Positions 117-53,594 of a stretch of DNA of 64,000 nucleotides are shown here, one piece after another. The notes under the pieces were generated by a model. The model ran no database searches, was not told where the DNA came from, and worked only from the letters and a program-made list of their open reading frames with translations. The stretch comes from a virus: positions 3,651-67,650 of IMG/VR virus record IMGVR_UViG_3300023184_000107; one strand, 5' to 3'. A program made the position numbers and the translations under genes. How positions within the stretch are numbered: the first letter of the stretch is position 1; each line of letters opens with the position of its first letter.

Positions 117-1381
117 AGTGATACAGCTCTCAAACGATTACCTACCTTTAGTGCAGCAATTTCTCTGATTGATTTTGCAATCAACAGCTTAGGGTCTCGG
201 GAAACAGGCTTGCCCTGAGCATAACCTGGTTCAAATGTCTGGTAGGGATTTCGCATATAGTTGTAAAAAGCTGTAATCATGCCGGCCCTACTCTCACTCA
301 TGCGTTGTACGCTGGCTGACGCCGCTAGGCGTCCGGTTTTGAGATTTAATATGTTCCTGCTACTACCATCACCCATGTTAGCGCTAATTACACTTTGTAA
401 ATTTTGGTTAATTAAGTTTTGTAGGCTTATTAATGAGTATGTAGGCTTAGTACTAGCCGCTTTAGATAAATTACTGACTACTTTACTAGAAGATACTTTA
501 GGCTTACCTGTATCTAATTGTGATTTTGCACTAGGTTTTTTTACGTGTTTACTGGTAGAGTGCTTATTAGTTAAATTAGCTATTATTCCTAGTTCAATGT
601 CTTGCACTATGCTATTAGAACCGGGTGTTACTATTATATCATTAACAAACTCACGAGAACTAACATACTCAGTAATTCTTTTGGAGATAAGTTTTTCGTA
701 CTTACTTATCTCATTATTTAAGGTTTGGGTTTGTAGTGTTACCACTACTACTATACCACCCAATATTTTATTAAATTGCTTAGTATTAAAATCTGGTCTA
801 GTAAAAGAGTACTCAGCTCCAAATTCGTGTAAACTATATAGTTCTGATATCTGGCTGCCAATAACCTCAGCAGCTGCAGATGAAAGTGGCACGCTGTTAA
901 ATAACTTTATAAGTTTTTCTTCTAGGGGGCTTCTTGCACCACCAATATTAGTAGTTGGCATGTGTCCTATATTTGCTACAGTTTTACCGGTTTCATCTTT
1001 GCCAGTAAACTTAGACTGTATACTGTTTACATTCTTAATAATGTTACTTATTCTTGATTGAACTGAACTATAAGAGGGTCCTAGTACGTATATACCATAC
1101 TCACGATCAATTACTAAACTTACATTACCTCTAGCAGCTAATTTAATTTGTTTTATGGCCTTATCTAACTTGCTGTAAGTATTGGTACTAAAAGCTATCT
1201 GAAATTCCTGTATTAGTAAAGAATAAGTTTCCTCAGTAATATCTGGATCAGAAGACTTTAGAGCACTAAAAGATATATCTACTAAGTGAATGTTTTTATC
1301 TAGTGAATTTCTGAACCCCTCTGTAGTAGATAGTGCTATTTTTTCGCACTTATTTAATACTGCTTGTGGTATAAGTGACAT
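113..1381 (-). CDS. tail completion protein (T5 p143-like), 422 aa
   Basis: Position between head completion and tail terminator; C-terminal LKTGRLA...YMRNPYQTFEPG...RDPKLLI region. Confidence 0.6.
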   Translation of the reverse strand: MSLIPQAVLNKCEKIALSTTEGFRNSLDKNIHLVDISFSALKSSDPDITEETYSLLIQEFQIAFSTNTYSKLDKAIKQIKLAARGNVSLVIDREYGIYVLGPSYSSVQSRISNIIKNVNSIQSKFTGKDETGKTVANIGHMPTTNIGGARSPLEEKLIKLFNSVPLSSAAAEVIGSQISELYSLHEFGAEYSFTRPDFNTKQFNKILGGIVVVVTLQTQTLNNEISKYEKLISKRITEYVSSREFVNDIIVTPGSNSIVQDIELGIIANLTNKHSTSKHVKKPSAKSQLDTGKPKVSSSKVVSNLSKAASTKPTYSLISLQNLINQNLQSVISANMGDGSSRNILNLKTGRLAASASVQRMSESRAGMITAFYNYMRNPYQTFEPGYAQGKPVSRDPKLLIAKSIREIAALKVGNRLRAVSL

Positions 1382-1950
1382 TAAGCATAACTCGCAGTAT
1401 GTAAATCTAACACACGTTTAATATTTGCTGGCAGGTTAGTGGTAGTAATATACTCTACCTGCATAGTATTGGGTTGGGCTGAACCAGTTGCGTGCACAGC
1501 ACTGTCATTCTTTAGGTAGTAACTAGTTAGGTCTAATACAGCTAATTTAAGATCTGCAGGAATAGTTTCGTATCCAGCATTATAGGTAAGTTTGTAACCA
1601 TTTATTAGTATGGGAAAATCCTTGTTAATATAGCGAATAGATCCGTTGGCCCTATTAAGTGCATAATCAGTAAATTCTATTAACTCTGTATATGTGCTTC
1701 CATAGTCTTTTGATACTTCTAGACCGTAAACTGAAATTACGGGCCACTCTTCTGGCATGTAACTAGCTGTTCCACCCTCAAAATATTCTGTTTTATACTC
1801 AGTTACATAGTCAATAAAACTACGACGACAAATGGTTTTTACTAGGTCGCTTACTTTAGGTATTAGTACGTCTAAAACTGCATCACTATTAGTACTGGAA
1901 ATTCCTGCATAGGTCTTGTACTCGGTTCTTGTAATTAAGTCTAGTCCCAT
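1381..1950 (-). CDS. head completion / head-tail adaptor protein
   Basis: Directly downstream of capsid gene; YNAGY..IPADLKLAVL motif typical of gp15/gp6-type connectors. Confidence 0.75.
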   Translation of the reverse strand: MGLDLITRTEYKTYAGISSTNSDAVLDVLIPKVSDLVKTICRRSFIDYVTEYKTEYFEGGTASYMPEEWPVISVYGLEVSKDYGSTYTELIEFTDYALNRANGSIRYINKDFPILINGYKLTYNAGYETIPADLKLAVLDLTSYYLKNDSAVHATGSAQPNTMQVEYITTTNLPANIKRVLDLHTASYA

Positions 1951-1998
1951 GTTTGTTCCTTTATTCTTTTATATGCCTAGTACACTAAGCATATAAAA

Positions 1999-2021
1999 GA
2001 AGGAAGCCGAAGCTTCCCTCT
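1999..2021 (-). terminator. intrinsic terminator after major capsid gene
   Basis: Hairpin GGAAGC-TTCG-GCTTCC followed by a T-rich tract on the minus strand. Confidence 0.65.
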
Positions 2022-2031
2022 TTATTTTACA

Positions 2032-3963
2032 TTAAGTTATCCAACGGAATACTGATACGCCTTGACCAAGATTAGTTGTAACTTGCTGAAGACCAGTACG
2101 TAGGCTAGCTACTAATACACGACGCTGTGTTTCAGCCATGTCTTGTGTATCAAAACGTAGACCACGTTGATTACCAGCAATAAAGTTGCCTGCAGCAAAA
2201 GCAATAGCACCATAATTAGTAGTAGTACTACTAGTTCCGGTAGCAGGCTTTGATGGGAACATTGAGCTTACTAACACTGGACTATTACCGATGCTGCCAA
2301 CTTGACCAGTTAATAGTGTAGCTTGTACACCAACTTGATTCATGGTTTGGAAAGAGGTATCGTCTAGTAAGTCGTAATATACTTCTGTAGAAACCACATA
2401 GGTAACTTCGGCAGGATCAAGACCCCAAGCACCTAAGTCTTTACGTAGAGCGCGCATGTTAGCAATAGTAGCAACACCTGCTTGTGTAGCAGTTACTGCA
2501 GAAGTTGCGTCATATAGGGCTAGACCCTTGACTGGATCAGCACCACTGCCGGCACCAATTAGGTAAGCTTTGTCAACTGCACGAGCAACACGGCGAATCA
2601 TGCCATCACGAACAATTGGAAGTATAACCATTAAGGCGTCTTCTTCTTCCTCGTAAGCCACATACTCTAGTGAGGCGACTTTAAATGCACTTAAAGTAAT
2701 TTCTTTTAGTGCATGAGTCTGAGCAGCACCAGCACTAGCAGTAGTACCAAAACTGCTGTTAGCCATCCAAGTTGCATCACCAGCTTCTGGATTCACAGGA
2801 ATAGTCATAACATTGGTTTTCATTGCAACGTTACGTAGTAATGGAGCAATAACTAATCTACGACGTACCTCGGCTTCCATGTTCATGGATACTTCTAGTT
2901 CCCATGTAGCACTTGGTAGGTGAGCACCAGTTTTCTCAATTATACCTGTACCATACTTAGTATCACCAATAGCTTTATTTTGCATCTTGGCTAACAGCAC
3001 GGCTTTTTCACGTTCTGCGTAATCGCCAGTAGTTTTGTCGCTATTAAATTGCATTTTGCTATTTTGAAGAGCAGCAATTTCAGCAGCTTTCTCTTTTAGT
3101 GCGCCATGCAGGTCATCAAGCATTTTGCTGGATTTTGTGCTTTCGTCAGCAAAACGAGCTTCAATATCTTTTAGTAGCTTTTCTGCTCCGCTTTCACCAA
3201 CCTTGATAGAAGCAGCAACAGCTTTTTCTACACGAGTATTAAGTTCAGCTTCAGCTTTAGCTTCTGCAGCTGCAACAGCAGCTGTAGCTGCTTGACTGTC
3301 AAGCAAAGCCTTAGTAGCTTGTTCAGCCGCAGACTTAGCAGCAGCGTCAAGCATAGTTTGTAATTCTTTTGGATCCATTTTCCATTCCTTTGTGATTGCG
3401 CTCTTTTTATCTGAGAGAGATTCTAGCCCTTTAGCTGATTCGGCTTTAGGTATAAATTGAGCTTTGAAACTATTGTATTCTTCAGCGTCTGAAAACGCCT
3501 TAGACAGGTTAAATAAAGTATTTTGGTTACAGGGTACTGAAACTACTGAAATTTCAATTAGCTCTAGTTCTTTTACTAAAAATACTTCGGCGGCTGAGTT
3601 GTATTCTGCATCTAGGATTCTAAACCCTATTGAGAAAGCTGTAAGGACTTCGTCCTTAATTAGACTAAAAACTTCAGCAGCCGCTGAAATTCTTGCTTTT
3701 ATGTAAAGTCCTTTAGCGTCTAGCTTGTGCTCAACCATGCGACCAATAGGGTCATCGTGATCATGCTGAGATAGAATGATTGGGTTCTTCAGGTAGTTTT
3801 GCATACCCTTTTCCCACACGCTTGCTGGTACTACATCGCCTTGTCTATCAACATCTACTGTAGAGGCATAGCCTTCAATAAAAATTGAATCAATCTTGTC
3901 TGTGGCAGCCGGCAGTTCTTTAGTAAAAGCACTATTTATATATAATACTTTTGTTTTATCCAT
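2032..3963 (-). CDS. fused HK97-type prohead protease + major capsid protein
   Basis: N-term IEGYAST..DRQGD, QHDHDDPIG, FSIGF, EISVVSVPCN (protease); C-term HK97-fold capsid; internal SD+ATG at 3378. Confidence 0.9.
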   Translation of the reverse strand: MDKTKVLYINSAFTKELPAATDKIDSIFIEGYASTVDVDRQGDVVPASVWEKGMQNYLKNPIILSQHDHDDPIGRMVEHKLDAKGLYIKARISAAAEVFSLIKDEVLTAFSIGFRILDAEYNSAAEVFLVKELELIEISVVSVPCNQNTLFNLSKAFSDAEEYNSFKAQFIPKAESAKGLESLSDKKSAITKEWKMDPKELQTMLDAAAKSAAEQATKALLDSQAATAAVAAAEAKAEAELNTRVEKAVAASIKVGESGAEKLLKDIEARFADESTKSSKMLDDLHGALKEKAAEIAALQNSKMQFNSDKTTGDYAEREKAVLLAKMQNKAIGDTKYGTGIIEKTGAHLPSATWELEVSMNMEAEVRRRLVIAPLLRNVAMKTNVMTIPVNPEAGDATWMANSSFGTTASAGAAQTHALKEITLSAFKVASLEYVAYEEEEDALMVILPIVRDGMIRRVARAVDKAYLIGAGSGADPVKGLALYDATSAVTATQAGVATIANMRALRKDLGAWGLDPAEVTYVVSTEVYYDLLDDTSFQTMNQVGVQATLLTGQVGSIGNSPVLVSSMFPSKPATGTSSTTTNYGAIAFAAGNFIAGNQRGLRFDTQDMAETQRRVLVASLRTGLQQVTTNLGQGVSVFRWIT

Positions 3964-3971
3964 GTAACTCC

Positions 3972-5156
3972 TTATTGCGGTTCCGGTGTTTTCGGAGCTC
4001 CCCCCACACTGGGATCAACCGCTGATCCAGCAATATTAGCTGGTATTCTTATATCATCATTTCCTGCTAGTTTATCATAGCGCAGTTCAATTCTAGCCTC
4101 GTTAGGAGTAAGAATACCTGCGTTTACTAATTTAGTATGATAATCAGCTACATCTATTAAATCTGGTTGCAGTGCTGATACATTAGCAGTAATAGGGGCT
4201 ATATCGTAACCAAAGAAACGCTCTATTGCTGCAACGTATTTGTTTACAATAGGCATTACAGTTTCCAGGTATAGTAATCTGAGATTTGGCGAAATGTTGG
4301 CATTGTTACCACCATCCAACAGGATAGGTGGCACACCTAGTGCTTTTAGTATTTTAATATCGTGGGTTTTAATGCTCTGATCAAAATCCATTTCTTGAAA
4401 TGTTGCAGAGCTAATAGGATTAAGTTTTAACCCGCTATCAAGAATCATGGGACGTTTAGCACCGTTTTTAGGGCTGTATCTGGTAACCCATTGTGCTATT
4501 GTTTTATCTTTGGCTACCTGACTTAGTGTGTTGTCTGTAGTTAGTACCATTCCGGCAACTGCACCATTTTCAAAGAATTGCTCCTGAAAAGTCTGCATTT
4601 TATACAGTATCTTGATATTTCTGTCAGCGCTAGCTAGTCGGCTAGTACCTCTATATACTGAAGTACTGGACAGGTCTTTAATGTGAATTATTTCTTCTGG
4701 CTTGAAATGTACAATGCTATTGTAGGTATACTCTGCTACAAATGTTTTGGGATCTGTTATGGTTTGTACACTTGCGGCAGGCAGGTGGTATAGAAACACA
4801 CCATCATAGTACATGAATATATTACCCTCTAGGATAAAGTCAGTAAATATATTACATCTGAATTCGTTAACTGTTTGGTAGGGGTTTGGGCGATAGTTCA
4901 GTAAGTTGTATAGACTTTTCTGTCTTACACCTACTACAACTCCCTCTATTACTTTATCTTTAATATCATAGTCTAAACTGGCGCAGGCATTAACAATTAA
5001 ATTAGTACCTCTATTAACTGTCTCTAACTTAATAAATGCATCTTTGTATGTAGCAAGAGCATCAGTACTGACGTTAGTACCGCTTTGATATCTAATTGTT
5101 TCTTGTGCAGGGTTCAGCTTCTGAAAGAGCCCTGTTATTTTATTGTACCATGCCAT
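3972..5156 (-). CDS. portal protein (HK97 family)
   Basis: IIHIKD, FFENGA, ILDSGLK, LGVPP, ILTPNEAR motifs; start reassigned to MAWYNK. Confidence 0.9.
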   Translation of the reverse strand: MAWYNKITGLFQKLNPAQETIRYQSGTNVSTDALATYKDAFIKLETVNRGTNLIVNACASLDYDIKDKVIEGVVVGVRQKSLYNLLNYRPNPYQTVNEFRCNIFTDFILEGNIFMYYDGVFLYHLPAASVQTITDPKTFVAEYTYNSIVHFKPEEIIHIKDLSSTSVYRGTSRLASADRNIKILYKMQTFQEQFFENGAVAGMVLTTDNTLSQVAKDKTIAQWVTRYSPKNGAKRPMILDSGLKLNPISSATFQEMDFDQSIKTHDIKILKALGVPPILLDGGNNANISPNLRLLYLETVMPIVNKYVAAIERFFGYDIAPITANVSALQPDLIDVADYHTKLVNAGILTPNEARIELRYDKLAGNDDIRIPANIAGSAVDPSVGGAPKTPEPQ

Positions 5157-5163
5157 AGTGTTC

Positions 5164-5583
5164 CTAGTAGAAACGCCCAAAATTACCACGCACACTGGCG
5201 GTACCAGTGTGTGTACTTTTAGACTTTTGTATCTCAATCCAGTTATTCTGCTTTACGGCGCTGGCTAAAGATGGTGCTTTACCATATATGCCATGTAGCT
5301 TTATGTGATGGCTACGACATAGTGTGTAAACATCCTTATAAATCTCTTGATGGTAATCTGTAATAAAGTCATCTCTAACTGCGAGTATGCCTGCATCAGT
5401 GCTAATATCATAGCCCTTACGTAGTGACCAGGCATTCAGTAACAGAGTAATAGAGTGAGTATGGTGTAGCTCCAGTTCTTGACTGGTTCCACAGATGTAG
5501 CAGCTGTCTTTTTTGTCATATGCTGCCTTGGCACGATCACGCACCCACTTTACTGGAATACGGTTGTTGGTGTTTGCTGCCAT
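5164..5583 (-). CDS. HNH nicking endonuclease (T5 SciA-like)
   Basis: CYICG..ELELHH...TLCRSHH..LH; lies between portal and TerL as in T5. Confidence 0.8.
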   Translation of the reverse strand: MAANTNNRIPVKWVRDRAKAAYDKKDSCYICGTSQELELHHTHSITLLLNAWSLRKGYDISTDAGILAVRDDFITDYHQEIYKDVYTLCRSHHIKLHGIYGKAPSLASAVKQNNWIEIQKSKSTHTGTASVRGNFGRFY

Positions 5584-5611
5584 TTTTATCCAGCTGTATT
5601 TTTTACTACTA

Positions 5612-5641
5612 TATTATATCATGATAGCAGCATGGTGTCAA
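5612..5641 (-). promoter_or_regulatory. sigma70-type promoter for nickase/portal/capsid operon
   Basis: TTGACA-17-TATAAT on minus strand. Confidence 0.75.
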
Positions 5642-5713
5642 TAACTAAATTTTTGGTGCTGGTTGTAACGCTGTTAGCCCACCAGCACAGACGGCGTAGG
5701 TGGGCTGTAAAAG

Positions 5714-7036
5714 TTATAGTGTGTAGGTGTACAGTGCGTATCTGAGTGCATCTGCAATGTGACTGTTGCGGTCATGGTCTGGACGCTCGATGCCGCTAGC
5801 TGCATCAGTTTTCCAGCGATAGCCGTTCAGCATTTGCAGTGTATGTGTGCAGTGTGGAGCGACCCTAAGCCGGCCAGACTCTACAATGGTCTGAACATAG
5901 GCAATGCCTTCCAGCACCTGCTTTTTAGCCTTAATAGTGCTAATGTCGTAGATGTAGGCTAGGTCACTGGCAAACTGAGCAGCTGCACTATCTATAAACA
6001 CAGTTTCAACTGACCAGCGACTACACAGCTGCTTGAACTGCTCAGCATGCTCAGCAGTTGTGGCCTGTGACTCCAGGTACTCGTCTACCACATGAAATTG
6101 TTGCAGACGTGGATCATAGGCTACGACTACTAGGGCTGTGGGATCTCTGTAACCTGGATCCATGCCAGCTATATACTCACAGCCGTCTGTGGCCGTAAAT
6201 TCTGCTATGTAACTGTCCTGCCAGTCCACATAGATCTGACCCTCAAATGTGGTAAATGACGCCATATACTCCTGAGCGAACTCAGCCTTGCTCATTGAGC
6301 GACGAGCTTCTGCTACGTCTGACTCTGTCATTCTGGTATTCTCAGTATAGTCTGCCTGAATACTTACCCACTCAGGATATTCTGCACTAAAGCCTCTGTC
6401 AAAGAATTCTGAGAACCAGTTAGTGCGGCCGCGAGGCGTGCTAATAAATATGGCCTTGCTGTTAGGCTTGTCTAGTGTGGGACGTAGTGCTACATTAAAT
6501 GCATCCTTGCCACCACTGCTGAGTGCAGCCTCGTCAAATATAATTAAGTCATAGCTGCGTCCAACTGAGCTGTCCACAGTTGAGATTGATCCCATTCTGA
6601 TAGTGCTCCCATTAGCCAACTCTATAACCTTGTCTTTAAGATTATCCTTTTCAACCTCTAGGTCAAAGCTCTTGATCAGCTTGCGCTGTAGTTCAAAACT
6701 GATGGCACTTAGGCTGTAGTTGGGTGACATAATCAACACGTTACAGCCAGGTACTAGTACTACCAGTTGTCCTATCACATTGGCTATGTAGGTTTTGCCC
6801 AACCTGCGGCTTAGTGCTGCACATATGAAACGGTAACGGGGGCTGTTGACAGCGTTAATCAGTGCAGTTTGGGGTCTGTTAAGCTCGTCCCAAGCAGTTG
6901 ATCTGGCATAGGTAACTGCATCAACAGCAGGTAACAGCCGAAGGTAAGCTGCGACTGACAGCTTAATAAACCTAGTACTAGCTGCAAACTCTGTGATTAA
7001 GTCACCACTTACATCATCTCTGCTTATATTTAACAT
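5714..7036 (-). CDS. terL: terminase large subunit
   Basis: Walker A SRRLGKT, Walker B IIFDEAA, ISTPRG, nuclease MDPG and HIADALRY; start reassigned to MLNISR. Confidence 0.95.
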   Translation of the reverse strand: MLNISRDDVSGDLITEFAASTRFIKLSVAAYLRLLPAVDAVTYARSTAWDELNRPQTALINAVNSPRYRFICAALSRRLGKTYIANVIGQLVVLVPGCNVLIMSPNYSLSAISFELQRKLIKSFDLEVEKDNLKDKVIELANGSTIRMGSISTVDSSVGRSYDLIIFDEAALSSGGKDAFNVALRPTLDKPNSKAIFISTPRGRTNWFSEFFDRGFSAEYPEWVSIQADYTENTRMTESDVAEARRSMSKAEFAQEYMASFTTFEGQIYVDWQDSYIAEFTATDGCEYIAGMDPGYRDPTALVVVAYDPRLQQFHVVDEYLESQATTAEHAEQFKQLCSRWSVETVFIDSAAAQFASDLAYIYDISTIKAKKQVLEGIAYVQTIVESGRLRVAPHCTHTLQMLNGYRWKTDAASGIERPDHDRNSHIADALRYALYTYTL

Positions 7037-8166
7037 AGCGCTAGTAACCGTTCTGCATTTGCCAGTGTGGTGTCCCAGTCGTTGTAGTTGTCTACAACGT
7101 ATACTGAACTGTACCAGGGGTTCTGTACGCCTGGCAGCCCCCATCTGAAGTCTGTGTCACGACTAGGCTGCATCATGATACAGGGCTTGCCTAGTGTGCC
7201 AGCTAGGTGCACAATTGAGGTGTCTACTGAGATTACAACATCTAGGCCTAACACATAGTCGATGGTTTGCTGCCAACTGGTACTAGCCAGTGGTGTTATG
7301 GTGCTGTGTTTAGCATCTGCAGGATTTAGACCCCATAATGTTCCATAAGTAGCAAATCTAGCAAAGTTGTAGATGGCAATACTTCGGTTATAGTCGTTGG
7401 CATGGGTTGGGCTACCTGAGGCCACCACTCCAATGTGCCTGCCAGTACCAAAACGGTGTGGTGTGCCTGACAGGTAGTTAGCTACTGGTATAACTCCAAA
7501 TATTCCAGGAAGACTACATAGTGGTATGCTTACAGATCCAGATACTGTTTCTGAGCAAGTATAGCCTGGAAATAAGCAGTTAAGGCTGGCATGACAATTT
7601 ATGATAACGTCACTAAAATACGGCTTGAGTAATGCTAAGTATCTAGCAAACTGTATCTTGTCGCCGATGCCCTGCTCAGTGAGTACACAAATTGAGGTAC
7701 CCTTACTGACACCATCCCATCTGGGTATTGACGTGTCAATTACAACTGAGCCTGGGCCTCTATTAAATCTGTACTCATACATAGGCCAGCCTGCGACACT
7801 ATTTGAGGCCTTGAGTTCACAATTGCCTAAATTCCAGATGCACTCAGTGTAAAGTGGGTCTAGGGTTAGTGCTGCACGATAAAAGCGTTCTGCGTCAGTT
7901 AAGTTATTGCGGCTGTATTCCAGTAGTCCAATGTTATTGAGTGCGCTAGGGTAACTGCCAAAACGTCCATCGCTAAACGGCGTGTTGCTGTTAGCAGCTA
8001 GTAGGTATGCGTCAAGTGCATCATCATCAAGATTCAGATACCTGTAGCAGTTGCCTAGGTTTAGGTAGCACTCCTTGAACTGGTGGGTACGTAGTTGACG
8101 ACGAAAAACTGCTGCAGCCTTGGCATAACGGCCTGACTCTAATAAGCGTGTACCACGATTATACAT
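7030..8166 (-). CDS. TPR-repeat protein with C-terminal GT9/heptosyltransferase-like domain
   Basis: TPR repeats (YLNLG, LNNIG, WNLG); EQGIGDKIQFARY and DVVISVDTSIVHLAG motifs. Confidence 0.8.
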   Translation of the reverse strand: MYNRGTRLLESGRYAKAAAVFRRQLRTHQFKECYLNLGNCYRYLNLDDDALDAYLLAANSNTPFSDGRFGSYPSALNNIGLLEYSRNNLTDAERFYRAALTLDPLYTECIWNLGNCELKASNSVAGWPMYEYRFNRGPGSVVIDTSIPRWDGVSKGTSICVLTEQGIGDKIQFARYLALLKPYFSDVIINCHASLNCLFPGYTCSETVSGSVSIPLCSLPGIFGVIPVANYLSGTPHRFGTGRHIGVVASGSPTHANDYNRSIAIYNFARFATYGTLWGLNPADAKHSTITPLASTSWQQTIDYVLGLDVVISVDTSIVHLAGTLGKPCIMMQPSRDTDFRWGLPGVQNPWYSSVYVVDNYNDWDTTLANAERLLALC

Positions 8167-8647
8167 TAATGGTGTCCTGAACGGGTGCGGTCATAAGTTT
8201 ACTGATTAACTCTGAGTACTTGCTGCCACCTGACTCATTGATCTGAATATTGGTCTGTGTTTTGATGTTGCTGGCGCGTAGGCTTTCCAGCTTGATCTCA
8301 CGATCCATGTGCTCCATAAGCATACGATGCTTGAGTGCTAGTAGCTCTGTGATATCTTTATTGCTGCCAGTTTCTGCCTCATCCATGTCCTGCAATTTGC
8401 GGCGGATAATGCCGTCGAGTAAATCACCCATCCTGAAACGGTTGTTGAATCCCAGGCTGTAGAACACCTGGTCAATGTACTGCTTGACTTCCCGGCGCGC
8501 TAGTGTGTCTGTGATGACGTGCACACTCACGTTTAGACTGTCAGCCACAGCTGCAAGGTCTGGATTTTCTAGATAGGTGTTGGCAATTAGTAAGGCTTCA
8601 GGACTTATGTTAAGTGCTTCAGCTGGGGTAACAGTGGGTAGTGACAT
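8159..8647 (-). CDS. terS: terminase small subunit
   Basis: ISPEAL.IANTYL, GFNNRF, SNKDI, QININ motifs recalled from T5-like TerS; start reassigned to MSLPT. Confidence 0.8.
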   Translation of the reverse strand: MSLPTVTPAEALNISPEALLIANTYLENPDLAAVADSLNVSVHVITDTLARREVKQYIDQVFYSLGFNNRFRMGDLLDGIIRRKLQDMDEAETGSNKDITELLALKHRMLMEHMDREIKLESLRASNIKTQTNIQINESGGSKYSELISKLMTAPVQDTINV

Positions 8648-8669
8648 AGTGGAGTGGGTAGTTTTGATA

Positions 8670-8698
8670 ATTATAACTGGTTTAAGCAAGCATGTCAA
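8670..8698 (-). promoter_or_regulatory. promoter upstream of terS
   Basis: TTGACA-17-TATAAT on minus strand. Confidence 0.75.
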
Positions 8699-8987
8699 CT
8701 CCAAAATTTCGTGAGTTTGGCACCCAAAGTTTTGCAGGGGTTTTTTAAATATGGCCGTGTGGGAGGGCGGGACTGCTATCATTATAATAGCAGTCTGCGA
8801 ACCGCCCTATGCTATTATAATAGTATAAACTGTATAAACTGTTTATACGGTTTATATGCACTAGCATACAAAAATCAAAAAGTCAACAAAAAAATTTAAA
8901 TTTATTTTAATTTTTTTTTTGTGTTTTCTGTAAGAATGCCTTGTAAACCCCTATAATACGTTAACGCAACAAAATCGGTAACTCAAA

Positions 8988-9341
8988 ATGAAACGCACTC
9001 CCCTTGAATTGTTTTTCGCTAAGTCACTCAAAATGGCACGCTCACGCAACAAGATGAAGGGTATGGCTAACGACGACAATGTAACTGTGGCCTATCTTGT
9101 AGGCTTGTTTCATGGGCAAAATGGGCTTTGCGTGCATACTGGTGAAACCATGACAATTGAACGGGGTTTAATTGATGGTGCAGTTTGTCCTGACTTATGC
9201 ACTATGGACAGAATCGACAATCGTATGGGATATGATGTTGGGAATATCATGCTTTGCTGCGATGGTATCAATCGTATGCGAGGTGACTTATCCCTGAAAA
9301 AATTTCGGGCATTGTGCAAGAGAATCGGTCTTGCAGATTGA
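8988..9341 (+). CDS. HNH-like endonuclease
   Basis: MDRIDNRMGYDVGNIMLCC..INRMR motif. Confidence 0.65.
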   Translation: MKRTPLELFFAKSLKMARSRNKMKGMANDDNVTVAYLVGLFHGQNGLCVHTGETMTIERGLIDGAVCPDLCTMDRIDNRMGYDVGNIMLCCDGINRMRGDLSLKKFRALCKRIGLAD

Positions 9342-9365
9342 TTATATACTACAGAAACATATAAT

Positions 9366-9482
9366 ATGAAAACATATACTAACAAACAAATCACAGAATT
9401 TGCAAAATTCTGCACTCGGCACGATATTACTTTCAGTAATATCACAGAATATAATGCTGCAATAGCACAATACTATATATAA
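9366..9482 (+). CDS. 38-aa microprotein (paralog of 9884-10009)
   Basis: Hand-translated MKTYTNKQITEFAKFCTRHDITFSNITEYNAAIAQYYI. Confidence 0.6.
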   Translation: MKTYTNKQITEFAKFCTRHDITFSNITEYNAAIAQYYI

Positions 9483-9495
9483 TTGTATACTATAC

Positions 9496-9655
9496 ATAAC
9501 CTGTGGATAACCTGTGGATATGTATAACCTGTGAATAACCTGTGGATAACCTGTGGATATGTATAACCTGTGGATAACCTGTGGATAACCTGTGGATAAC
9601 CTGTGGATATGTATAACCTGTGGATAACCTGTGGATATGTATAACCTGTGGATAT
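9496..9655. repeat. tandem array of 12 DnaA-box-like 9-mers (11/17-bp period)
   Basis: 6x TGTGGATAA, 1x TGTGAATAA, 5x TGTGGATAT, all co-oriented. Confidence 0.9.
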
Positions 9656-9711
9656 AGTATAGTAACTAATCTAAATTTTGCGCCAGTACCGGCGCCAGTA
9701 TGCCTGCTATT

Positions 9712-9787
9712 GGTCGCGTCAAGCGACCGCTATGCTAATCATAGCGGGGCGCGCCAAAATTATATCACACTATAGCGCACTCTGCAA
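9712..9787 (-). promoter_or_regulatory. palindrome cassette 1 with leftward promoter
   Basis: GGTCGC-n5-GCGACC + GCTAT-n7-ATAGC; TTGCAG-17-TATAAT on minus strand (9759-9787). Confidence 0.7.
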
Positions 9788-9883
9788 CAAAAATAGTTTT
9801 ATTTATTTTTGAGATTTGCAACAATACCACACTTCCTGGTGCAATCTGGTATATAATGGACACTTAGCAACAAGGGGCAAAAA

Positions 9884-10009
9884 ATGCGAACACAATTCAC
9901 GGCCAAGGAAGTTACAAAATTTCAGAGCTTTGCAAAGCGTCATGGTATGCGCTTTGCAACAATGGCAGAATATTTAGCAGCAATTGCACAATATTTCAAA
10001 AAAACCTGA
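9884..10009 (+). CDS. 41-aa microprotein (paralog of 9366-9482)
   Basis: MRTQFTAKEVTKFQSFAKRHGMRFATMAEYLAAIAQYFKKT; AAGGGG SD and upstream TATAAT. Confidence 0.65.
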   Translation: MRTQFTAKEVTKFQSFAKRHGMRFATMAEYLAAIAQYFKKT

Positions 10010-10133
10010 TATAATCACTGTATAGCAACAAGGGGTTAAAAATGTTTCTCATGCGGTACTGCTAACGCATATATTCTAGCGGCGGTAAACGGGTAACGAT
10101 AAACCCATTTTTTGGTAAATTTAGGAAAAAATC

Positions 10134-10460: not shown

Positions 10461-10464
10461 TAAG

Positions 10465-12936: not shown

Positions 12937-13058
12937 TAAATACAATCAGGTTTTTAATTTTTATCTTGAAAATCTTGCAGAACAGGTATATAATGGATAC
13001 TTAGCAGGCAGTAAAGGGAAACTGTTAAAAATCCCTGATTCTCTTGAAGGAAAATGTG

Positions 13059-14268: not shown

Positions 14269-14275
14269 AAAAGAT

Positions 14276-15190: not shown

Positions 15191-15212
15191 TTGTTGGTGG
15201 TGCTGCGCCAAG

Positions 15213-44321: not shown

Positions 44322-45173
44322 ATGAACGATCCAGTACTAGATCTTCTTAAACAAAAAGCTGTATATTTCTCAATATCTGGAAAGGACTATGTTACTAAGT
44401 GTTTTAACCCAGAGCATGCAGACAGTAACCCTAGTTTTCGTATTGATAGAGTATCAGGTATAGCACACTGTTTTAGTTGCGGGTTTAAAACCAATATCTT
44501 TAAATTTTACGGATTACTAACAAATAACACCTCTATTAGAGTAGCTAAACTAAAAGATAAACTAAAAGCGCTACAAGTTAGCACAGAGGGTCTGGAGCCA
44601 TTAGATGGTGCAAGACCCGTTAATTCTGTATTTAGAGGTATTAGTACACAAACTTTAAAATATTTTGGAGCTTTTGAAACTGATCGAGTAGATAAGATGG
44701 AAGACAGGATTATATTTCCAGTCAAAGACATACGCAATAAAACAGTTTGCTATGTTGGTAGGCACAGCTTATCTAATGGTAATCCACGCTATGTAAATTA
44801 TCCTAGTGGCGTAACTATTCCACTATTCCCTACACGATTTAGTGAAAAACATAAGACTATTGTTTTAGTAGAAGGCATATTTGATATGCTAAACTGCTAT
44901 GACAAGGGATTACATAACGTTGTATGTACTTTTGGTACTACTAAATTACTCACTGATGTACCGGAAAAGCTGCTTAGTTTTAAGGTCATGGGTATACAAA
45001 AAGTTTTTATTCTCTATGACGGAGATACTGCAGGTAGAGAAGCAGCCAGAAAGATTAAACCACTGATTGAAGAATCTGGTTTTATGTGTGAGATTATTGA
45101 CTTGCCAGAAGGAGATGATCCTGGTATAATATCACAAGATTACGTTGATTCAATTAAGGAATACACTAAGTGA
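44322..45173 (+). CDS. dnaG: DNA primase
   Basis: CHC2 zinc motif, VEGIFD, YDGD.AG TOPRIM. Confidence 0.9.
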   Translation: MNDPVLDLLKQKAVYFSISGKDYVTKCFNPEHADSNPSFRIDRVSGIAHCFSCGFKTNIFKFYGLLTNNTSIRVAKLKDKLKALQVSTEGLEPLDGARPVNSVFRGISTQTLKYFGAFETDRVDKMEDRIIFPVKDIRNKTVCYVGRHSLSNGNPRYVNYPSGVTIPLFPTRFSEKHKTIVLVEGIFDMLNCYDKGLHNVVCTFGTTKLLTDVPEKLLSFKVMGIQKVFILYDGDTAGREAARKIKPLIEESGFMCEIIDLPEGDDPGIISQDYVDSIKEYTK

Positions 45174-47455
45174 AAATTGCAATTATAGATAAAGCACCGT
45201 CAAGAAATAAATACTCTGAATATTTTGACTTTGAGTTTGACTTATTTCATATGAGTCAGGTAGCCCTACCAAAGCTGTTAAAGAAAGATGTAACACTACA
45301 AGTTGATCTTGAGCCCTATACTTATGTTGTGCTTGTAGGCAGTGAAGCTGCAAAAGAGTACGCTAAAATTAGTAGTGTTACTAACTATGCTGGCCAGCTA
45401 ATGCATGATAAGTTTATCTGTATTAGTAACCCTGCTATCCTACACTTTAAGCCAGAAGGTAAAGAGGCGTTTAAGCGTGCAGCAGATCGTATTAACAAGT
45501 ACGTGTCTGGTGAAATCACTAATGCTAAAACCACTGGTACATATTTAGGTATTACAGACCCTAAGCTGGCACAAGCTTTCTTAACCGAAGTTTATAATAA
45601 TGCTGAGGGGTATGTTAGCTGGGACACAGAGACAACTTGCCTGTATCCTCGTGATGGATATGTGCTGGGTCTGTCTATCAGTTATAAAACTAAACAGGGT
45701 GCCTACATTGCTACAGATTGCTTAGATGAGCAGTGTATGCAACTGTTAACTGATATCATTGCCAAATACTCAGCAGTATTTCATAACATGAAGTTTGACA
45801 TCAAGATGATTGAGTATCACCTGGGATTACGGTTTGATCGTAGTCGAGTACACGACACCATGGTCATGCACTATTGCCTAGATGAAAACGAGGGTCACGG
45901 GCTCAAAGCACTAGCATTAAAGTACACAGACTATGGTGACTATGACTCAGAACTAGACGAATTTAAGCGAGTATACTGTGCTCGTACAGGTGTATCTACT
46001 GATGATTTTACCTATGATCTAATACCATTTGATGTTATCTCTAAATACGCAGCCATTGACACAGCAGTTACCTTTGACCTGTTTCACAAGTTTTGGCCTG
46101 TAATCCAAAAGAATCAGAAACTACTAAACCTGTATCAAACTATTATGATTCCGGGTACCCTATTTCTTATGGATATGGAAGAAGTAGGAATTCCTATCAA
46201 TAAAGCCAGAATGACTGCTGCTGAAGGTTACTTAGACAAGTGGATTAATGAGGCTAAACAAGAAATCTATACTTTTCAGGCAGTCAAAGACTTTGAAAGT
46301 GACGCTGGAATTATATTTAACCCTAACAGTGTACAGCAACTGCGTAAGGTATTGTTTGACTACCTAAAACTTAACCCTGTACAGGGCAAACTTACTGCAA
46401 CTGGGGCTATCAGTACGGATGCAGAAGTATTAGAAGAGTTATCTGAAGAGCATCCACTACCTGCTGCGATCCTTAAGGTTCGTCAGTTGGGTAAAATGAA
46501 AAATACCTATATCAGCAAGATTTTACCGGAACTAGATAAAGATGAGCGAATTAGAACAAATTTTAATCTTATTTTTACCACATCTGGGAGGCTATCTAGT
46601 TCAGGTAAATTTAATGCACAACAGATACCTAGAGATGATCCAATCATTAAAGGTTGCATACACGCTCCAGTTGGATATAAGATAATAAGCCAAGACTTAG
46701 CAACTGCTGAAATGTACTATGGAGCTGTGCTATCAGGCGATAAAAATCTACAGCAAGTATTTGTTAGTGGCGGCGACTTTCACAGTACTATTGCTAAAAT
46801 GGTATTTGATTTAACTTGTAAGGCAGAAGATGTTAAAAAACTTTATGGAGGCATGCGGCAAAGTGCTAAAGCAATTTCATTTGGAATCTTATACGGGTCA
46901 GGGCCGCAAAAGGTTTCCGATACAGTAAGTAAGTCAACAGGGGAATATTATGGTATCGATCGAGCAAAGGATGATATTAAATCCTACTTTGATAAGTTTA
47001 GCAAACTTAAAGGCTGGCTTAAGTCGCGTAAAGAATTTATTGAAGCTAATGGGTATACTTACAGTTTCTTTGGTCGTAAGCGTAGGCTTATCAATGTGTT
47101 TAGCACAGATAGAGGAATTGCAGCTCATGAAGTACGAAGTGGAATCAACTCTGAAATTCAGTCAATTGCTAGTGATGTAAATTTGCTGGCAGCTATTGAA
47201 ACTGCTAATGAGATTGTTGCCAAAGGGTTAGATGCCAAGATCTTTATGCTAGTGCACGACTCAATTGTGGCTGTGGTTAAGGACGAACATGTACAGGAAT
47301 ATTGCAAAATTCTTCGGGCTAACACACAGAAAGATCGTGGTTGCAGTATACCAGGTACACCTATTGGAGTAGATCAAGATATAGGACAGGATTACAGTTT
47401 TGGAAACTTTGACGAACGCTACCAGCTTAGCGGAGATTGCTTATCCCGTATTTAA
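45170..47455 (+). CDS. polA: family A DNA polymerase
   Basis: DTET/HNMKFD/YAAID exonuclease; SGRLSS, RQSAKAISFGILYG, VHDS. Confidence 0.95.
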   Translation: MKIAIIDKAPSRNKYSEYFDFEFDLFHMSQVALPKLLKKDVTLQVDLEPYTYVVLVGSEAAKEYAKISSVTNYAGQLMHDKFICISNPAILHFKPEGKEAFKRAADRINKYVSGEITNAKTTGTYLGITDPKLAQAFLTEVYNNAEGYVSWDTETTCLYPRDGYVLGLSISYKTKQGAYIATDCLDEQCMQLLTDIIAKYSAVFHNMKFDIKMIEYHLGLRFDRSRVHDTMVMHYCLDENEGHGLKALALKYTDYGDYDSELDEFKRVYCARTGVSTDDFTYDLIPFDVISKYAAIDTAVTFDLFHKFWPVIQKNQKLLNLYQTIMIPGTLFLMDMEEVGIPINKARMTAAEGYLDKWINEAKQEIYTFQAVKDFESDAGIIFNPNSVQQLRKVLFDYLKLNPVQGKLTATGAISTDAEVLEELSEEHPLPAAILKVRQLGKMKNTYISKILPELDKDERIRTNFNLIFTTSGRLSSSGKFNAQQIPRDDPIIKGCIHAPVGYKIISQDLATAEMYYGAVLSGDKNLQQVFVSGGDFHSTIAKMVFDLTCKAEDVKKLYGGMRQSAKAISFGILYGSGPQKVSDTVSKSTGEYYGIDRAKDDIKSYFDKFSKLKGWLKSRKEFIEANGYTYSFFGRKRRLINVFSTDRGIAAHEVRSGINSEIQSIASDVNLLAAIETANEIVAKGLDAKIFMLVHDSIVAVVKDEHVQEYCKILRANTQKDRGCSIPGTPIGVDQDIGQDYSFGNFDERYQLSGDCLSRI

Positions 47456-47963: not shown

Positions 47964-49259
47964 ATGCCTAAAGCCATAATCTCCAACAGAATATACCTAG
48001 ACACTACACCTGAAATTGCACAAACCTTAGCTAAAACACTGACCTATAAGATCAAAAAACCACCCAGGCCGGGACTAACACACTTTACTCAGTTTGATAT
48101 CATCAAGAACTATAAAATGCTGCCTAAGGGCGTCATGAGTATTCCTGGTGGTCGCATAGACCTAATTCCTGAAAACTATGAGGTCATAGACAAGCGTGTA
48201 TTTCATGAACTGCCTTTTCCAGACCCTAAGCTGGCTCTTAGACCCAGCCAACTACTGGTTTATAATTCAGCAGATGACATGTGCTTTATTAACGCAATGG
48301 TTGGTTGGGGCAAAACATTTTGTGCATTACATATTGCCAGAAAACTAGGTCAAAAAACACTGATAGTATGCCACAATACCATGTTGCGCGATCAGTGGAT
48401 TACAGAAGTTCAAAAACTATACGCAATGCCTGTAGGCGTTATTGGCAGTGGTGAGTTTGATATTGACCATTCAATTGTAGTTGGTAACATTCAGACCCTT
48501 ACCAAGATTGTTCCACAAATTTCCAAGGAGTTTGGCACAGTTATAGTAGATGAGTGTCATCACGTTACTGCTACAACCTTTACAGCCTTCCTAGATGGCA
48601 TGTATGCCAGATACAAGATTGGTCTTAGTGGTACTATGAAACGTAAGGATGGTAGGCATGTGCTATTCAAGGACTTCTTTGGCCCTAAGCTGTTTCAACC
48701 ACCAGAAGAAAACACTCTTACACCTACAGTTAAAGTAGTTAAAACTGGAGTAGCCTTAGCAGCAGGGGAACCTTGGGTCAAAAAGATTAACCTATTGTTG
48801 TACGATCCTGATTATCAAAACTTTATTGCAGCAATTGCCAAGATAGAAATGGATCGGGGACATAAAGTTCTTGTTATTGCAGACCGAGTTGAGTTTTTAC
48901 AAAAAGTAGGAGAACAAATTGGTGAAACGTGTGTGTGCATTACTGGTGGTACAACCTTTGAGGAACGTACCGAACTTATCCAACAAGTTGAAAGTGGTAA
49001 GAAAAGCTGCATTGCTGGCAGCCGACAAATATTCTCAGAGGGTATCTCCGTAAATATACTAAGTTGCGTAATTTTAGCTGCGCCAATTGCTAACGACAGT
49101 TTACTAGAACAAATTGTTGGCAGAATACAGCGTAAACATGACAACAAGCTAAACCCCTTAGTAATAGACATGCACTTTAGTGGCCACAGTGACCGTAAAC
49201 AAAATAATGATCGCCTAGCGTTTTATCAACGCAAAGGCTGGGAAGTAGTGGGGGTATAA
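47964..49259 (+). CDS. D10: SF2 helicase (T5 D10)
   Basis: GWGKT, DECHH, LSGT, EG, QIVGRIQR. Confidence 0.9.
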   Translation: MPKAIISNRIYLDTTPEIAQTLAKTLTYKIKKPPRPGLTHFTQFDIIKNYKMLPKGVMSIPGGRIDLIPENYEVIDKRVFHELPFPDPKLALRPSQLLVYNSADDMCFINAMVGWGKTFCALHIARKLGQKTLIVCHNTMLRDQWITEVQKLYAMPVGVIGSGEFDIDHSIVVGNIQTLTKIVPQISKEFGTVIVDECHHVTATTFTAFLDGMYARYKIGLSGTMKRKDGRHVLFKDFFGPKLFQPPEENTLTPTVKVVKTGVALAAGEPWVKKINLLLYDPDYQNFIAAIAKIEMDRGHKVLVIADRVEFLQKVGEQIGETCVCITGGTTFEERTELIQQVESGKKSCIAGSRQIFSEGISVNILSCVILAAPIANDSLLEQIVGRIQRKHDNKLNPLVIDMHFSGHSDRKQNNDRLAFYQRKGWEVVGV

Positions 49260-51353: not shown

Positions 51354-53148
51354 GTTTACAGAATTACGATGGAGTAATGTATTTAGTTATGGTAAAGATA
51401 ACTGTCTAAAATTAGATAGTGCTCCACTAACGCAACTAATAGGTAAGAATGGTAATGGAAAAAGTTCCGTAGCACTAGTAATAGAGGAAATACTATTCAA
51501 CCAAAACTCTAAAAAGATCAAAAAAGCAGATATACTTAATAGGTATACTAAAGATAAACACTACACTATAGAATTGGATTTTGATAAAGATGGTACTCAA
51601 TATACTGTTAATACTACTAGAACTGGTAATTCTGGTAGTGTCACTCTTACTAGAGATGGTAAGGATATTAGTAGTCATACCAGTACTGGGACTTATAAAA
51701 CTATTGAGCATATTCTGGGTTTTGATCACAAAACGTTTTCGCAAATAGTTTATCAAAGCAGTGTTAGTAGTTTAGAGTTTCTTACAGCTACAGATACTGC
51801 TAGAAAGAAATTTCTTATTGAACTACTAAATCTTACTAAGTATACGGAGGCTTCTGAGGTATTTAAGGAACTTGCTGTAGGTATGTCTAAACAGGTAGAT
51901 ACAGTACAAGCTAAGATGCAGACTGTATCAGTATGGCTTAATAAATATAGGACTCAATCTTTAGTAGAAAAACCATTACAAGATGAGTTAGATTATCCTA
52001 ATTCAATTATTGAACGTGTTACCTTATTAAGTAACGAGTTAACTAATATAGAGGCTACTAATAAAAAGATTAGTCAAAATAATGCATATAAGCAGATATT
52101 TAATAATATTGTAATAGAACTTGGCTACCCTCATCCAGATACTTCTCAATTAATGCCAATGAAGCTACAGGTAGCTCAGGCACAAAAAGAGCTAAAAGAT
52201 GGGGCTAGTTTAAGTAGTAAACATAAGGGCCCTGTAATTAAGTGTGTTACGTGTTCACAAGACATAGATAATACTACTATGTTTAATATGGTACTAGACT
52301 TTGACACAAAACGTCAAAGTTTAGAGGACTTAGTATCTAATCTAACTATAAAAATTAAAGTGTTAGAGAGTGCAATAGCTAAATATAGTGTGCATGAGAA
52401 AAATACTCAGGAATGGGAAAAATATCATGCCTTAATTGATAAAAATCTATCTGGTGATTTATTGGATAGAAATCAACTAACTAATGATATTAAGTGTTTA
52501 CAGGCATCTGCAGATGCTATTATAACTGCTATAACACAAACTAAACATGCTAATAAACTGGCCTATGAGCATAACTCTAAAGTTAAAGTAATCCTGGAAC
52601 AGCTTACCTCTATGGAAGCAGAGTTTAAAGAGTTATCGGAGGAATTAGCCGTCAGAATATCTGAGTTATCAAACCTACAGATTTTAGTTAAAAGTTTTAG
52701 TACTACAGGTTTAGTAGCTTATAAAATTGAGTGCCTAGTAAAAGACCTAGAAGAGATTACTAATGAATACTTAACTACTCTGTCCTCTGGTAGATTTCAG
52801 TTGGGTTTTAAAATTACTAGTTCTGATAAACTAAATGTAATAATTACTGATAATGGCAAAGACATTGATATTGTTGCTCTTAGTACGGGTGAGCGAGCAA
52901 GAGTTAATGTGGCCACTCTTTTAGCTATCAGAAAATTAATGCAGAGCTTGTCTAATAGCAGAACAAATTTGCTTATTCTTGATGAAACAGTGGAAAATCT
53001 TGATGCAGAAGGTAAGGAAAAATTAATTGAAGTCCTATTGGAAGAACAAAATTTAAATACCTTTCTTATTTCGCATGGTTTCTCTCACCCATTACTAGAA
53101 AAAATCAGTATAGTAAAGCACAATAATATATCGAGAATTGAATGGTAG
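51346..53148 (+). CDS. D13: SbcC/Rad50-like ATPase (T5 D13)
   Basis: GKNGNGKS, CVTC hook, LSTGE, LDE. Confidence 0.9.
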   Translation: MIKFTELRWSNVFSYGKDNCLKLDSAPLTQLIGKNGNGKSSVALVIEEILFNQNSKKIKKADILNRYTKDKHYTIELDFDKDGTQYTVNTTRTGNSGSVTLTRDGKDISSHTSTGTYKTIEHILGFDHKTFSQIVYQSSVSSLEFLTATDTARKKFLIELLNLTKYTEASEVFKELAVGMSKQVDTVQAKMQTVSVWLNKYRTQSLVEKPLQDELDYPNSIIERVTLLSNELTNIEATNKKISQNNAYKQIFNNIVIELGYPHPDTSQLMPMKLQVAQAQKELKDGASLSSKHKGPVIKCVTCSQDIDNTTMFNMVLDFDTKRQSLEDLVSNLTIKIKVLESAIAKYSVHEKNTQEWEKYHALIDKNLSGDLLDRNQLTNDIKCLQASADAIITAITQTKHANKLAYEHNSKVKVILEQLTSMEAEFKELSEELAVRISELSNLQILVKSFSTTGLVAYKIECLVKDLEEITNEYLTTLSSGRFQLGFKITSSDKLNVIITDNGKDIDIVALSTGERARVNVATLLAIRKLMQSLSNSRTNLLILDETVENLDAEGKEKLIEVLLEEQNLNTFLISHGFSHPLLEKISIVKHNNISRIEW

Positions 53149-53594
53149 ATTCTAGAGCTAAAGGGGCTAGAGCAGAAACTCAGGTTAGAGATAAACTGCG
53201 AGAACTCACAAAACTTAATTGGGAGAGGGTGCCTAGTTCTGGTTCTCTAGACCCTAAGCATGGGCTAAAAGGCGACTTGTACGTACCTAATGAAAAGAAC
53301 TTGTATTGTGTGGAAGTCAAACACTATGCTGACGACCACATAACAAGTTCTATCTTAACAGCGCAAGAACCTCAATTAGTAACCTGGTGGGAACAAACAC
53401 TCAGACAAGGTAAACAGGTCAATAAAATTCCACTATTAATATTCAAGCATGACAGATCCAGAATGTTCTGTGCTTTTAGTGATTTACCTACAGAGTTTCA
53501 CCGATTTATATCCGTCTGTGCCAATAACAATTATTTTAATGTTGCCATACTTGATGACTTTGTACGTCATGAACAGCCAAAATTTATAACTTGA
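53142..53594 (+). CDS. D14: PD-(D/E)XK resolvase-like protein (T5 D14)
   Basis: KGARAE, GD, VEVK, WWEQ. Confidence 0.85.
   Translation: MVDSRAKGARAETQVRDKLRELTKLNWERVPSSGSLDPKHGLKGDLYVPNEKNLYCVEVKHYADDHITSSILTAQEPQLVTWWEQTLRQGKQVNKIPLLIFKHDRSRMFCAFSDLPTEFHRFISVCANNNYFNVAILDDFVRHEQPKFIT

Follow-up and report, generated by a model that had tools for sequence, protein, structure and literature searches.

A 12-base word, GACCCTAAGCTG, recurs along a 64,000-nucleotide stretch of virus DNA, bases 3651 to 67650 of the 67,650-base IMG/VR record IMGVR_UViG_3300023184_000107 (here called the window). Judged by its gene set, the source phage is an uncultured freshwater relative of phage T5; the 23 public runs listed as containing window DNA are freshwater or lake metagenomes and one labelled marine. 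Late genes run leftward (113-8782) and include those for the large terminase (5714-7144) and the small terminase (8159-8782). They are followed by a rightward block (~9-14.2 kb) with a dmp-like HAD-family (phosphatase) protein and two A2-like genes, a non-coding, repeat-rich stretch (14.2-14.8 kb), a leftward early block (15.3-22.5 kb), and a rightward tRNA and replication block (23-60 kb). T5 (AY543070) has the same order: pre-early genes, the injection-stop signal (9140-10149), and leftward early genes from 10.9 kb. There are 24 tRNA genes and one tmRNA gene. The replication genes encode a split NAD-ligase, a D5-like regulator (41814-42560), a DnaB-like helicase (42933-44321) separate from the primase (44322-45173), a DNA polymerase, and a D10-like helicase; an SbcCD-like nuclease, RusA, a flap exonuclease, and ribonucleotide reductase are also encoded. 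Megablast against 50,697 GenBank phage records found no near relative of the window. A more sensitive search with the polymerase-helicase stretch matched 271 records, all at 60 to 80% identity over no more than 16% of the query, among them T5-like phages of Salmonella, Vibrio, Escherichia, and Pectobacterium.

The initial annotation, which was made from the sequence alone, had listed 10 exact copies of GACCCTAAGCTG. All were found, on the plus strand at 14602, 15254, 15691, 25136, 31408, 38060, 45557, and 48222 and on the minus strand at 185 and 14680, and none occurred in any of 100 dinucleotide-preserving shuffles. The eight one-mismatch copies that it had listed (5861+, 15348-, 16311+, 18285-, 20295+, 21835+, 30213-, and 48681+) were likewise present. 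Copies with at most one mismatch thus number 18, compared with a shuffle mean of 0.16 (maximum, 2). An 8-base core, GACCCTAA, occurs 15 times in the window, 12 times on the plus strand and 3 times on the minus strand. It is extended by GCTG in 10 of the 15 copies and by GCCG in 2, and the preceding base is A, C, or T in all 15. The word can be written H-GACCCTAA-RYTG, a form that is sharpened to GACCCTAAGCTG in the window phage. Two plus-strand copies are recognized by their core: one at 36512-36519, sense in the open reading frame (ORF) 36281-36553, and one at 53250-53257, sense in the RusA-like gene, which has two mismatches to the 12-mer. The gap between 8.7 and 14.5 kb that had been pointed out is real, as no copy with up to two mismatches lies between 6865 and 14602, but about 1 to 1.6 copies are expected in 5.8 kb and the gap is not significant. 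Even spacing of the copies was considered and rejected: the pooled gaps had a coefficient of variation of 0.73 versus 0.98 for an exponential (P 0.003), a weak result in which gaps above 25 kb were dropped from the data while the null was left untruncated.

The enrichment persisted under a codon-aware null. Asp-Pro-Lys tripeptides number 11 in the proteome versus 2.5 expected from amino acid frequencies, and 9 of these 11 are spelled GACCCTAA versus 1.4 expected from codon usage. The 15 core copies compare with 5.2 ± 1.6 (maximum, 9) in 100 synonymous-codon shuffles, which left intergenic copies in place. Codon-aware enrichment was also found in two relatives. The excess of this codon spelling, together with the excess over the shuffles, indicates that selection acts on the DNA and that the protein sequence is dragged along. 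The word had been described as kept inside genes as Asp-Pro-Lys-Leu. In every long ORF with a sense copy, the word starts at codon position 1 (six of six copies: 185, 18285, 31408, 45557, 48222, and 48681), as it also does at 15348 in an A2-like gene. Convincing sense coding sequence accounts for only 4 of the 10 exact copies, all reading DPKL: 185-196 (-), near the 3′ end of the late-region ORF 113-1381; 31408-31419 (+), in ORF 31381-31677; 45557-45568 (+), in the DNA polymerase gene; and 48222-48233 (+), in the D10-like helicase gene, which also holds the one-mismatch copy 48681. The remaining exact copies are intergenic, antisense, or in doubtful ORFs.

To place the word in its clade, relatives were gathered by their polymerase. 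This gave 71 IMG/VR loci (1.05 Mb), 70 of them at 64 to 84% protein identity and one at 27%; de-duplication left 38 loci (594 kb). Five near-complete relatives were compared with the window, making six genomes together. The "terminal repeats" of relatives are 127-bp assembly overlaps, and G002 is a linear contig whose rotation is approximate. The exact 12-mer is rare among the relatives, with one copy each in 4 of the 71 loci. The core occurs 188 times in the full set and 110 times in the de-duplicated set. Each of the five near-complete relatives carries 14 to 26 cores versus 3 to 6 copies of a reversed-word control, and in G003 the core is the top dispersed 8-mer (25 copies versus 1.2 under an order-3 Markov model). 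The relatives' extension is looser, RYTG, with a dialect form GACCCTAAACTG. Among cultured members of the family, the core is present in 2 copies in T5, 3 in DU_PP_V, 3 in KpGranit, 7 in Ceto, and 9 in KIT04. At the polymerase site 45557, the word is found in none of 63 aligned relatives, whose residues there vary (DTKQ, NTTQ, DTAE, and others). Some sites are conserved; a D-L-T-L-S site upstream of the polymerase gene is common to many relatives and absent from the window. Such sites excepted, positions turn over and are not inherited.

A 12-bp dialect peculiar to one lineage is easier to reconcile with a phage reader that co-evolves than with a host factor. The 12-mer was present in at most 2 copies per genome in 401 sampled Pseudomonadota, and the core was no commoner than the reversed-word control in three bacterial genomes. 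A query with the epimerase, made to find a host, matched three bacterial loci and gave no convincing host. Literature searches returned no description of the word in a phage: the 12-mer was absent from all papers listed, and the 8-mer matches listed concern primers, microRNAs, and telomeres. Other words were also examined. GACCCTGA was tried as a family-wide word in T5 and KIT04 and is high under a Markov null. In T5, the codon-aware z for GACCCT is 1.2 (12 of 84 Asp-Pro pairs), and in KIT04 there is only a general GAC-CCT codon-pair excess, so that no family-wide word is claimed. A search for words confined to one strand yielded only protein-repeat and ribosome-binding-site words. In G001, a related second word, ACCCTAAC, occurs once forward and 20 times in reverse, in 9 bins of 3 kb.

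The densest group of copies in the window occupies the junction of the rightward pre-early and leftward early blocks, where, by gene order compared with AY543070, T5 has its injection stop. Both inverted pairs described earlier were recovered there. In the first (14602-14691), a 66-bp A/T-rich spacer separates the exact copies 14602+ and 14680-. This pair immediately follows a 12/24-bp tandem repeat and a series of palindromic terminators, within the non-coding repeats with which the rightward pre-early block ends. The second (15254-15359) consists of the exact copy 15254+ and the one-mismatch copy 15348- and encloses a hairpin with T-runs on both sides, resembling a two-way terminator. Copy 15348, on the minus strand, forms the final codons (DPKPL-stop) of a diverged A2-like gene of 112 amino acids (aa) at 15342-15680 (-), here called the cluster A2-like gene. 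A further exact copy, 15691-15702 (+), lies 10 nt upstream of the ATG of this gene (15680), in the orientation opposite to it. A perfect sigma-70 consensus promoter (TTGACA-17-TATAAT, 12/12 positions) is present at 15213-15241 (-); its -35 starts 12 nt from word 15254, and transcription from it would run antisense to the small gene 14841-15014. About 5 kb to the left of the cluster, 12 head-to-tail ATAACCTGTGGATA units, which are DnaA-box-like, lie at 9468-9665 with 11- or 17-bp spacing, and an HNH/endonuclease VII-like ORF (8988-9341, +) lies between terS and this array.

The copies are oriented by arm. Coordinate 1 was set at the 3′ end of the cluster A2-like gene, and the early/late junction coordinates were read by eye from maps. 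In the five relatives, the arm between the cluster and the early/late junction carries 39 plus and 3 minus copies and the other arm 3 plus and 19 minus, while the cluster zone (-3 kb to +1.6 kb) carries 18 plus and 20 minus. In the window, the right arm is 8:0 and the late parts are 1:1. The exception is the plus-strand copy 5861-5872, with one mismatch and an exact 8-base core, which is antisense in the large terminase gene terL (5714-7144) and breaks the arm polarity. In a survey of the six genomes and 34 loci, in which 40 copies were in clusters, copies in genes outside clusters were 131 sense and 11 antisense; intergenic copies outside clusters were co-oriented with both flanking genes in 19 cases, opposed to them in 5, and between divergent or convergent genes in 7. 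The early region of the 38 loci has 110 copies on one strand and none on the other. Avoidance of the other strand, suggested by 188 plus and 0 minus copies in the 1.05 Mb, was dropped as a claim, because after de-duplication the figure for antisense copies in genes was 2 versus 1.1 in synonymous shuffles.

In the leftward early block, the effect of gene direction can be told apart from that of map position. More than 1.6 kb from the cluster, eight copies in this block (three antisense in genes and five intergenic) follow the orientation of the neighbouring rightward early block, and two follow the local genes. The window matches this pattern, with 16311+, 20295+, and 21835+ set against 18285- (16311-21846), so that three of four copies oppose the local genes; each has one mismatch, and 21835 has an exact 8-base core. 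The polarity is therefore read as positional, that is, as probably dependent on genome position, on discriminating counts that are small and with some sites shared by related genomes. An orientation tied to DNA ends or to replication direction is consistent with these counts, as the arm polarity holds even against gene direction (8:2). Overall, the word is real, selected at the DNA level, shared by the clade, and polar, and its reader is probably a phage factor that is sensitive to direction.

Some copies lie on promoters. The reported overlap with a -35 element was confirmed: the exact copy 38060-38071 covers the -35 of a sigma-70-type promoter, TTGACC-17-TATAAT (38058-38086, +), which agrees with the consensus at 11 of 12 positions and would serve the helicase-family gene 38108-38716. 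Homologues of this promoter keep the word, on the -35 in L064, L001, and L031 and within the spacer in L018. In a second promoter family (G003, G004, L025, and L039), the word stands immediately before the -10. Altogether, 11 of the 19 co-oriented intergenic copies are on sigma-70-like promoter sequences, in two registers. A word that is kept while its register varies is as expected of an operator.

Two further copies of the window are associated with tRNA and tmRNA genes. The exact intergenic copy 25136-25147 (+) lies 5 nt after tRNA-Glu. The tRNA-Glu stretch 25011-25135 is skipped or replaced in contigs of all four public runs compared, with homology back 1 nt before the word; several other contig joints also border tRNA genes, so that the tRNA island is a mosaic. 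The one-mismatch copy 30213-30224 (-) is inside the predicted tmRNA gene. Here the complement of the word lies a few bases after the tag reading frame of a permuted tmRNA, and the RNA could pair with sense copies.

The cluster A2-like gene (15342-15680) is a candidate for the gene of the protein that reads the word. Its product is 37% identical to those of the two pre-early A2-like genes, 10134-10460 (+) and 13044-13370, which share 94% protein identity with each other. A 300-nt direct repeat (85% identity; 10123-10422 and 13048-13347) duplicates the pre-early A2-like gene, and one cassette of palindrome and promoter is reused across the pre-early gaps. Orthologues of the cluster gene (49 to 59% identity) lie inside the cluster in all five relatives, beside a conserved 270- to 340-aa protein of no known family. 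The word stands at the 3′ end of the A2-like gene in five of the six genomes, read as DPK-x-x-stop in three, as L-T-L-N-stop in one, and across the stop codon in one. A fixed place in changing frames indicates that the DNA itself is conserved there. T5 A2 matches phrog_1725, "DNA binding protein," with an E value of 4e-52, and the pre-early paralogues match the same family weakly (E values of 1e-4 and 1e-3). Comparison of a three-paralogue profile with T5 A2 by hhalign gave a probability of 54% and an E value of 1.3e-4. A predicted model of the cluster protein (mean pLDDT, 79) has two three-helix units and a low-confidence linker. Its residues 1 to 50 superpose on the helix-turn-helix DNA-binding domain of GcrA (Z 7.4; root mean square deviation, 0.9 Å over 45 residues), on the small terminase of phage G20c (Z 7.2), and on Myb repeats and Tc3 and resolvase domains (Z of about 5.5). 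As described in the available portions of bioRxiv 10.1101/866236 (section 4.7) and 10.64898/2026.04.02.716235, T5 A2 is a DNA-binding dimer that is essential for second-step transfer by an unknown mechanism; those portions describe no DNA site for A2.

We tentatively favor the reading that the word is the docking site of a phage DNA-binding protein, with an A2-like protein as the candidate. A sequence-specific DNA-binding protein of the phage would recognize the word as an asymmetric site. Selection on the DNA would keep about one copy per 5 kb, bending coding sequence to Asp-Pro-Lys(-Leu). The copies would fall into three groups, namely, the mixed-orientation cluster at the injection-stop position, operator-like copies at early promoters, and dispersed copies oriented by arm. 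After first-step entry, the reader, putatively the cluster A2-like protein or else either pre-early paralogue, would assemble both on the cluster and on the dispersed sites. It would then serve a direction-sensitive process, which might be the restart or completion of DNA transfer, the control of early promoters, or the handling of the two arms in replication. The initial annotation had proposed either a site for the nickase or a binding site for a phage or host protein. With the cluster at the injection stop and an A2-like gene embedded in it, a phage-protein site tied to second-step transfer appears to fit better, and the nickase proposal is weakened.

Several observations weigh against this docking reading. 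The link to A2-like proteins is drawn from gene position and family, and other phage DNA proteins may be the reader instead, among them the nickase homologue, the D5-like regulator (41814-42560), the primase, and TerS. The cluster paralogue matches no PHROG or Pfam family, and Foldseek with the A2-like model gave no match at an E value of ≤0.001. The Z score of 7.4 is below the level that the tool regards as meaningful and may reflect only a common arrangement of helices. A dimer such as T5 A2 would more naturally read a palindrome. Simple docking also leaves the arm polarity (39:3 and 3:19) unexplained. The promoter overlap may in part reflect short intergenic gaps that are mostly promoter, and the sense bias is partly a coding effect (antisense copies in genes, 2 versus 1.1 by shuffling in the 38 loci).

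An alternative, which we consider unlikely, is that the word is the site of a phage nickase that makes single-strand interruptions in packaged DNA, as in T5, tf, Rembedalsseter, and phiKMV-like phages. The candidate is a 139-aa protein (5164-5583, -) that is 33 to 49% identical to proteins annotated as "nicking site-specific endonuclease" in T5-like records, an assignment that comes from annotation only. It matches 899 phage records, 885 of them over at least 80% of its length, and is present in all five relatives at 52 to 63% identity. T5-like phages are the classic nicked phages. A major T5 nick mapped at 9748/9749 lies inside the injection-stop region, where the window phage has its cluster, and the word GCGCAGGG marks the annotated major T5 interruptions at 9748, 22336, and 39746 and a repeat copy. 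The word of the window is unrelated in sequence to the T5 nick consensus, R/GCGCRGG, and that consensus is not kept in the clade, so that the nickase would need another site: GCGCAGG is neither enriched nor strand-biased, with 11 plus and 8 minus copies in the 594 kb of de-duplicated loci and 0 to 4 per strand in G000 and G002 to G005. The nick words of other phages are similar in kind, being asymmetric 9-mers present in 13 or 14 copies, running through genes, and existing in dialects, according to the available portions of PMC3517423 and PMC11780129. The early-region copies, all on one strand (110:0 in 38 loci), also fit a nickase.

Strand distribution argues against this alternative. In the available text of PMC3517423, the nick words of tf and its relatives, of phiKMV-like phages, and of T5 are on one strand only, and the Rembedalsseter word is likewise one-stranded in that of PMC11780129. 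The word studied here is not, since it switches between the arms (39:3 versus 3:19). Opposed copies also stand close together, 9 bp apart in G004 (2530-/2539+), 30 bp apart in G001 (37704-/37734+), and 78 to 94 bp apart in the window, and such pairs would yield double-strand breaks if all were nicked. Contigs of four runs (X3, X4, X17, and X19), from the 23 that are all stored as assembled contigs, were compared over 14000-33999 and displayed no pile-up of read ends, a feature that contigs would not reveal in any event. In G001, 21 copies of the word coexist with a 7:1 one-strand bias of GCGCAGG, which hints, on small numbers, that the G001 nickase still reads the T5-type word. Vibrio phage KIT04 (LC487410) shows a 6:0 one-strand distribution of GCGCAGG, which, with the 7:1 of G001, suggests T5-type nicking outside Tequintavirus.

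The docking reading can be carried further, to a form that we regard as rather improbable. The word would then be the missing cis partner of a T5-type A2, and its copies would be genome-wide, arm-polarized handles, most crowded at the injection-stop position, that load pre-early A2-like proteins to restart transfer and to mark or organize the incoming chromosome. Such handles might also mark the phage DNA as "self" against the phage's own destruction of host DNA. If true, this would make both the mechanism of second-step transfer and the escape from A1-dependent degradation testable questions.

The arm geometry itself would be accommodated by a Chi-like signal, to which we give a low probability. 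In this case, a processive exonuclease of host or phage origin, entering at DNA ends, would read the complement of the word (5′-...TTAGGGTC-3′), and degradation of the linear genome from either end or of broken forks would be attenuated. In each arm, the strand bearing the complement has its 3′ end at the closer of the two genome ends, in a layout inferred from T5. Both orientations would be required in a directly repeated terminal region, and both are found in the cluster (18 plus and 20 minus); the copies of the leftward block follow the arm and not the genes (8:2). The escape of T5 DNA from A1-dependent degradation is stated to be unknown in mechanism in the available part of bioRxiv 10.64898/2026.04.02.716235. 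Against a Chi-like signal, T5 makes no comparable use of E. coli Chi, with 8 copies including repeat duplicates and no arm pattern. The lineage-specific 12-bp dialect is also longer than known Chi words, which are 5 to 8 nt. There was no host enrichment in the genomes surveyed (at most 2 copies of the 12-mer in 401 Pseudomonadota; core no commoner than the control in three bacterial genomes), a weak objection.

Even less probable is that the DnaG-type primase or primosome of the phage prefers the word as a place to start on lagging-strand templates, at forks that leave a central origin. In favor of this idea, the polarity switches at the early/late junction, and T5 origins reportedly lie near the middle of the molecule (bioRxiv 10.1101/866236, section 3.3.3). 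In addition, the lagging-strand template would read ...TTAGGGTC in both arms, the helicase (42933-44321) and primase (44322-45173) genes are separate, and GGGTC is a preferred T7 primase site. Primase words are 3 to 5 nt, however, and about 20 sites per genome would not be enough to prime lagging-strand synthesis in general. Little or no enrichment of the word is seen in T5, Ceto, and KIT04, whose replication modules are related, and the promoter overlap and the copy at the A2-like gene end would be left unexplained. The Chi-like and primosome explanations both fit the arm geometry but account less well for the 12-bp dialect, the copies on promoters, and the copy at the A2-like gene. A signal in the transcript or the non-template strand, such as a processing site or an ops-like element recruiting an elongation factor, is very improbable: the sense bias outside clusters (131 to 11 in genes and 19 to 5 between them) and the placement of copies 15254 and 15348, each just upstream of the shared hairpin in its own direction, would suit it, but copies in the leftward block mostly oppose the genes (8:2, with three antisense inside genes), copy 5861 is antisense in terL, and the promoter-overlapping copies are upstream of the transcription start.

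In T5-like phages, a textbook system, three features still lack an explanation, namely, the injection-stop region, the essential A2 protein, and the site-specific nicks. The word provides a clean sequence handle for the clade and defined substrates for assays whichever protein reads it, be it an A2-like protein, the nickase, the primase, or an exonuclease.

Like Chi sites (E. coli GCTGGTGG) and the sites of Chi-rich phages, the word is polar and over-represented, with an orientation tied to DNA ends or replication. Unlike Chi, it has a 12-bp dialect specific to the phage lineage, and no host enrichment was seen in the genomes sampled. The nick words of tf and Rembedalsseter (TACTRTGMC and WACTRTGAC), of phiKMV-like phages, and of T5 are, in the available source text, likewise short, asymmetric, over-represented, conserved within groups with dialects, and found inside genes. 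Those nick words keep to one strand, whereas the window word changes strand from one arm to the other and takes both orientations in the cluster. Of the T5 A2 protein, the window has three distant homologues of weak similarity, two of them pre-early and one in the cluster.

A further parallel is the T5 untranslated repeat region 3 (AY543070, 9140-10149), which has the same map position as the window cluster and is described as the injection-stop signal of first-step-transfer DNA in the available portion of Davison (bioRxiv 10.1101/866236). In both, short repeats and inverted repeats are densely packed and accompanied by palindromic terminators. T5 also clusters and reuses a word, GTGCAAATCC, which occurs seven times in the injection-stop region and three times dispersed. 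Its copies are at 9753-10478, 12154, 78936, and 78951; one is 5 nt from the annotated nick 9748, and two are 15 bp apart in gene D13, at about 64.8% of the genome. In the window, the DnaA-box array (9496-9665) is about 5 kb from the cluster and not inside it. Unlike the window, T5 has only two cores of GACCCTAA, neither in the injection-stop region, and the repeats of the two phages are not related in sequence. Unlike the word of T5, that of the window is genome-wide, arm-polar, and written into coding sequence.

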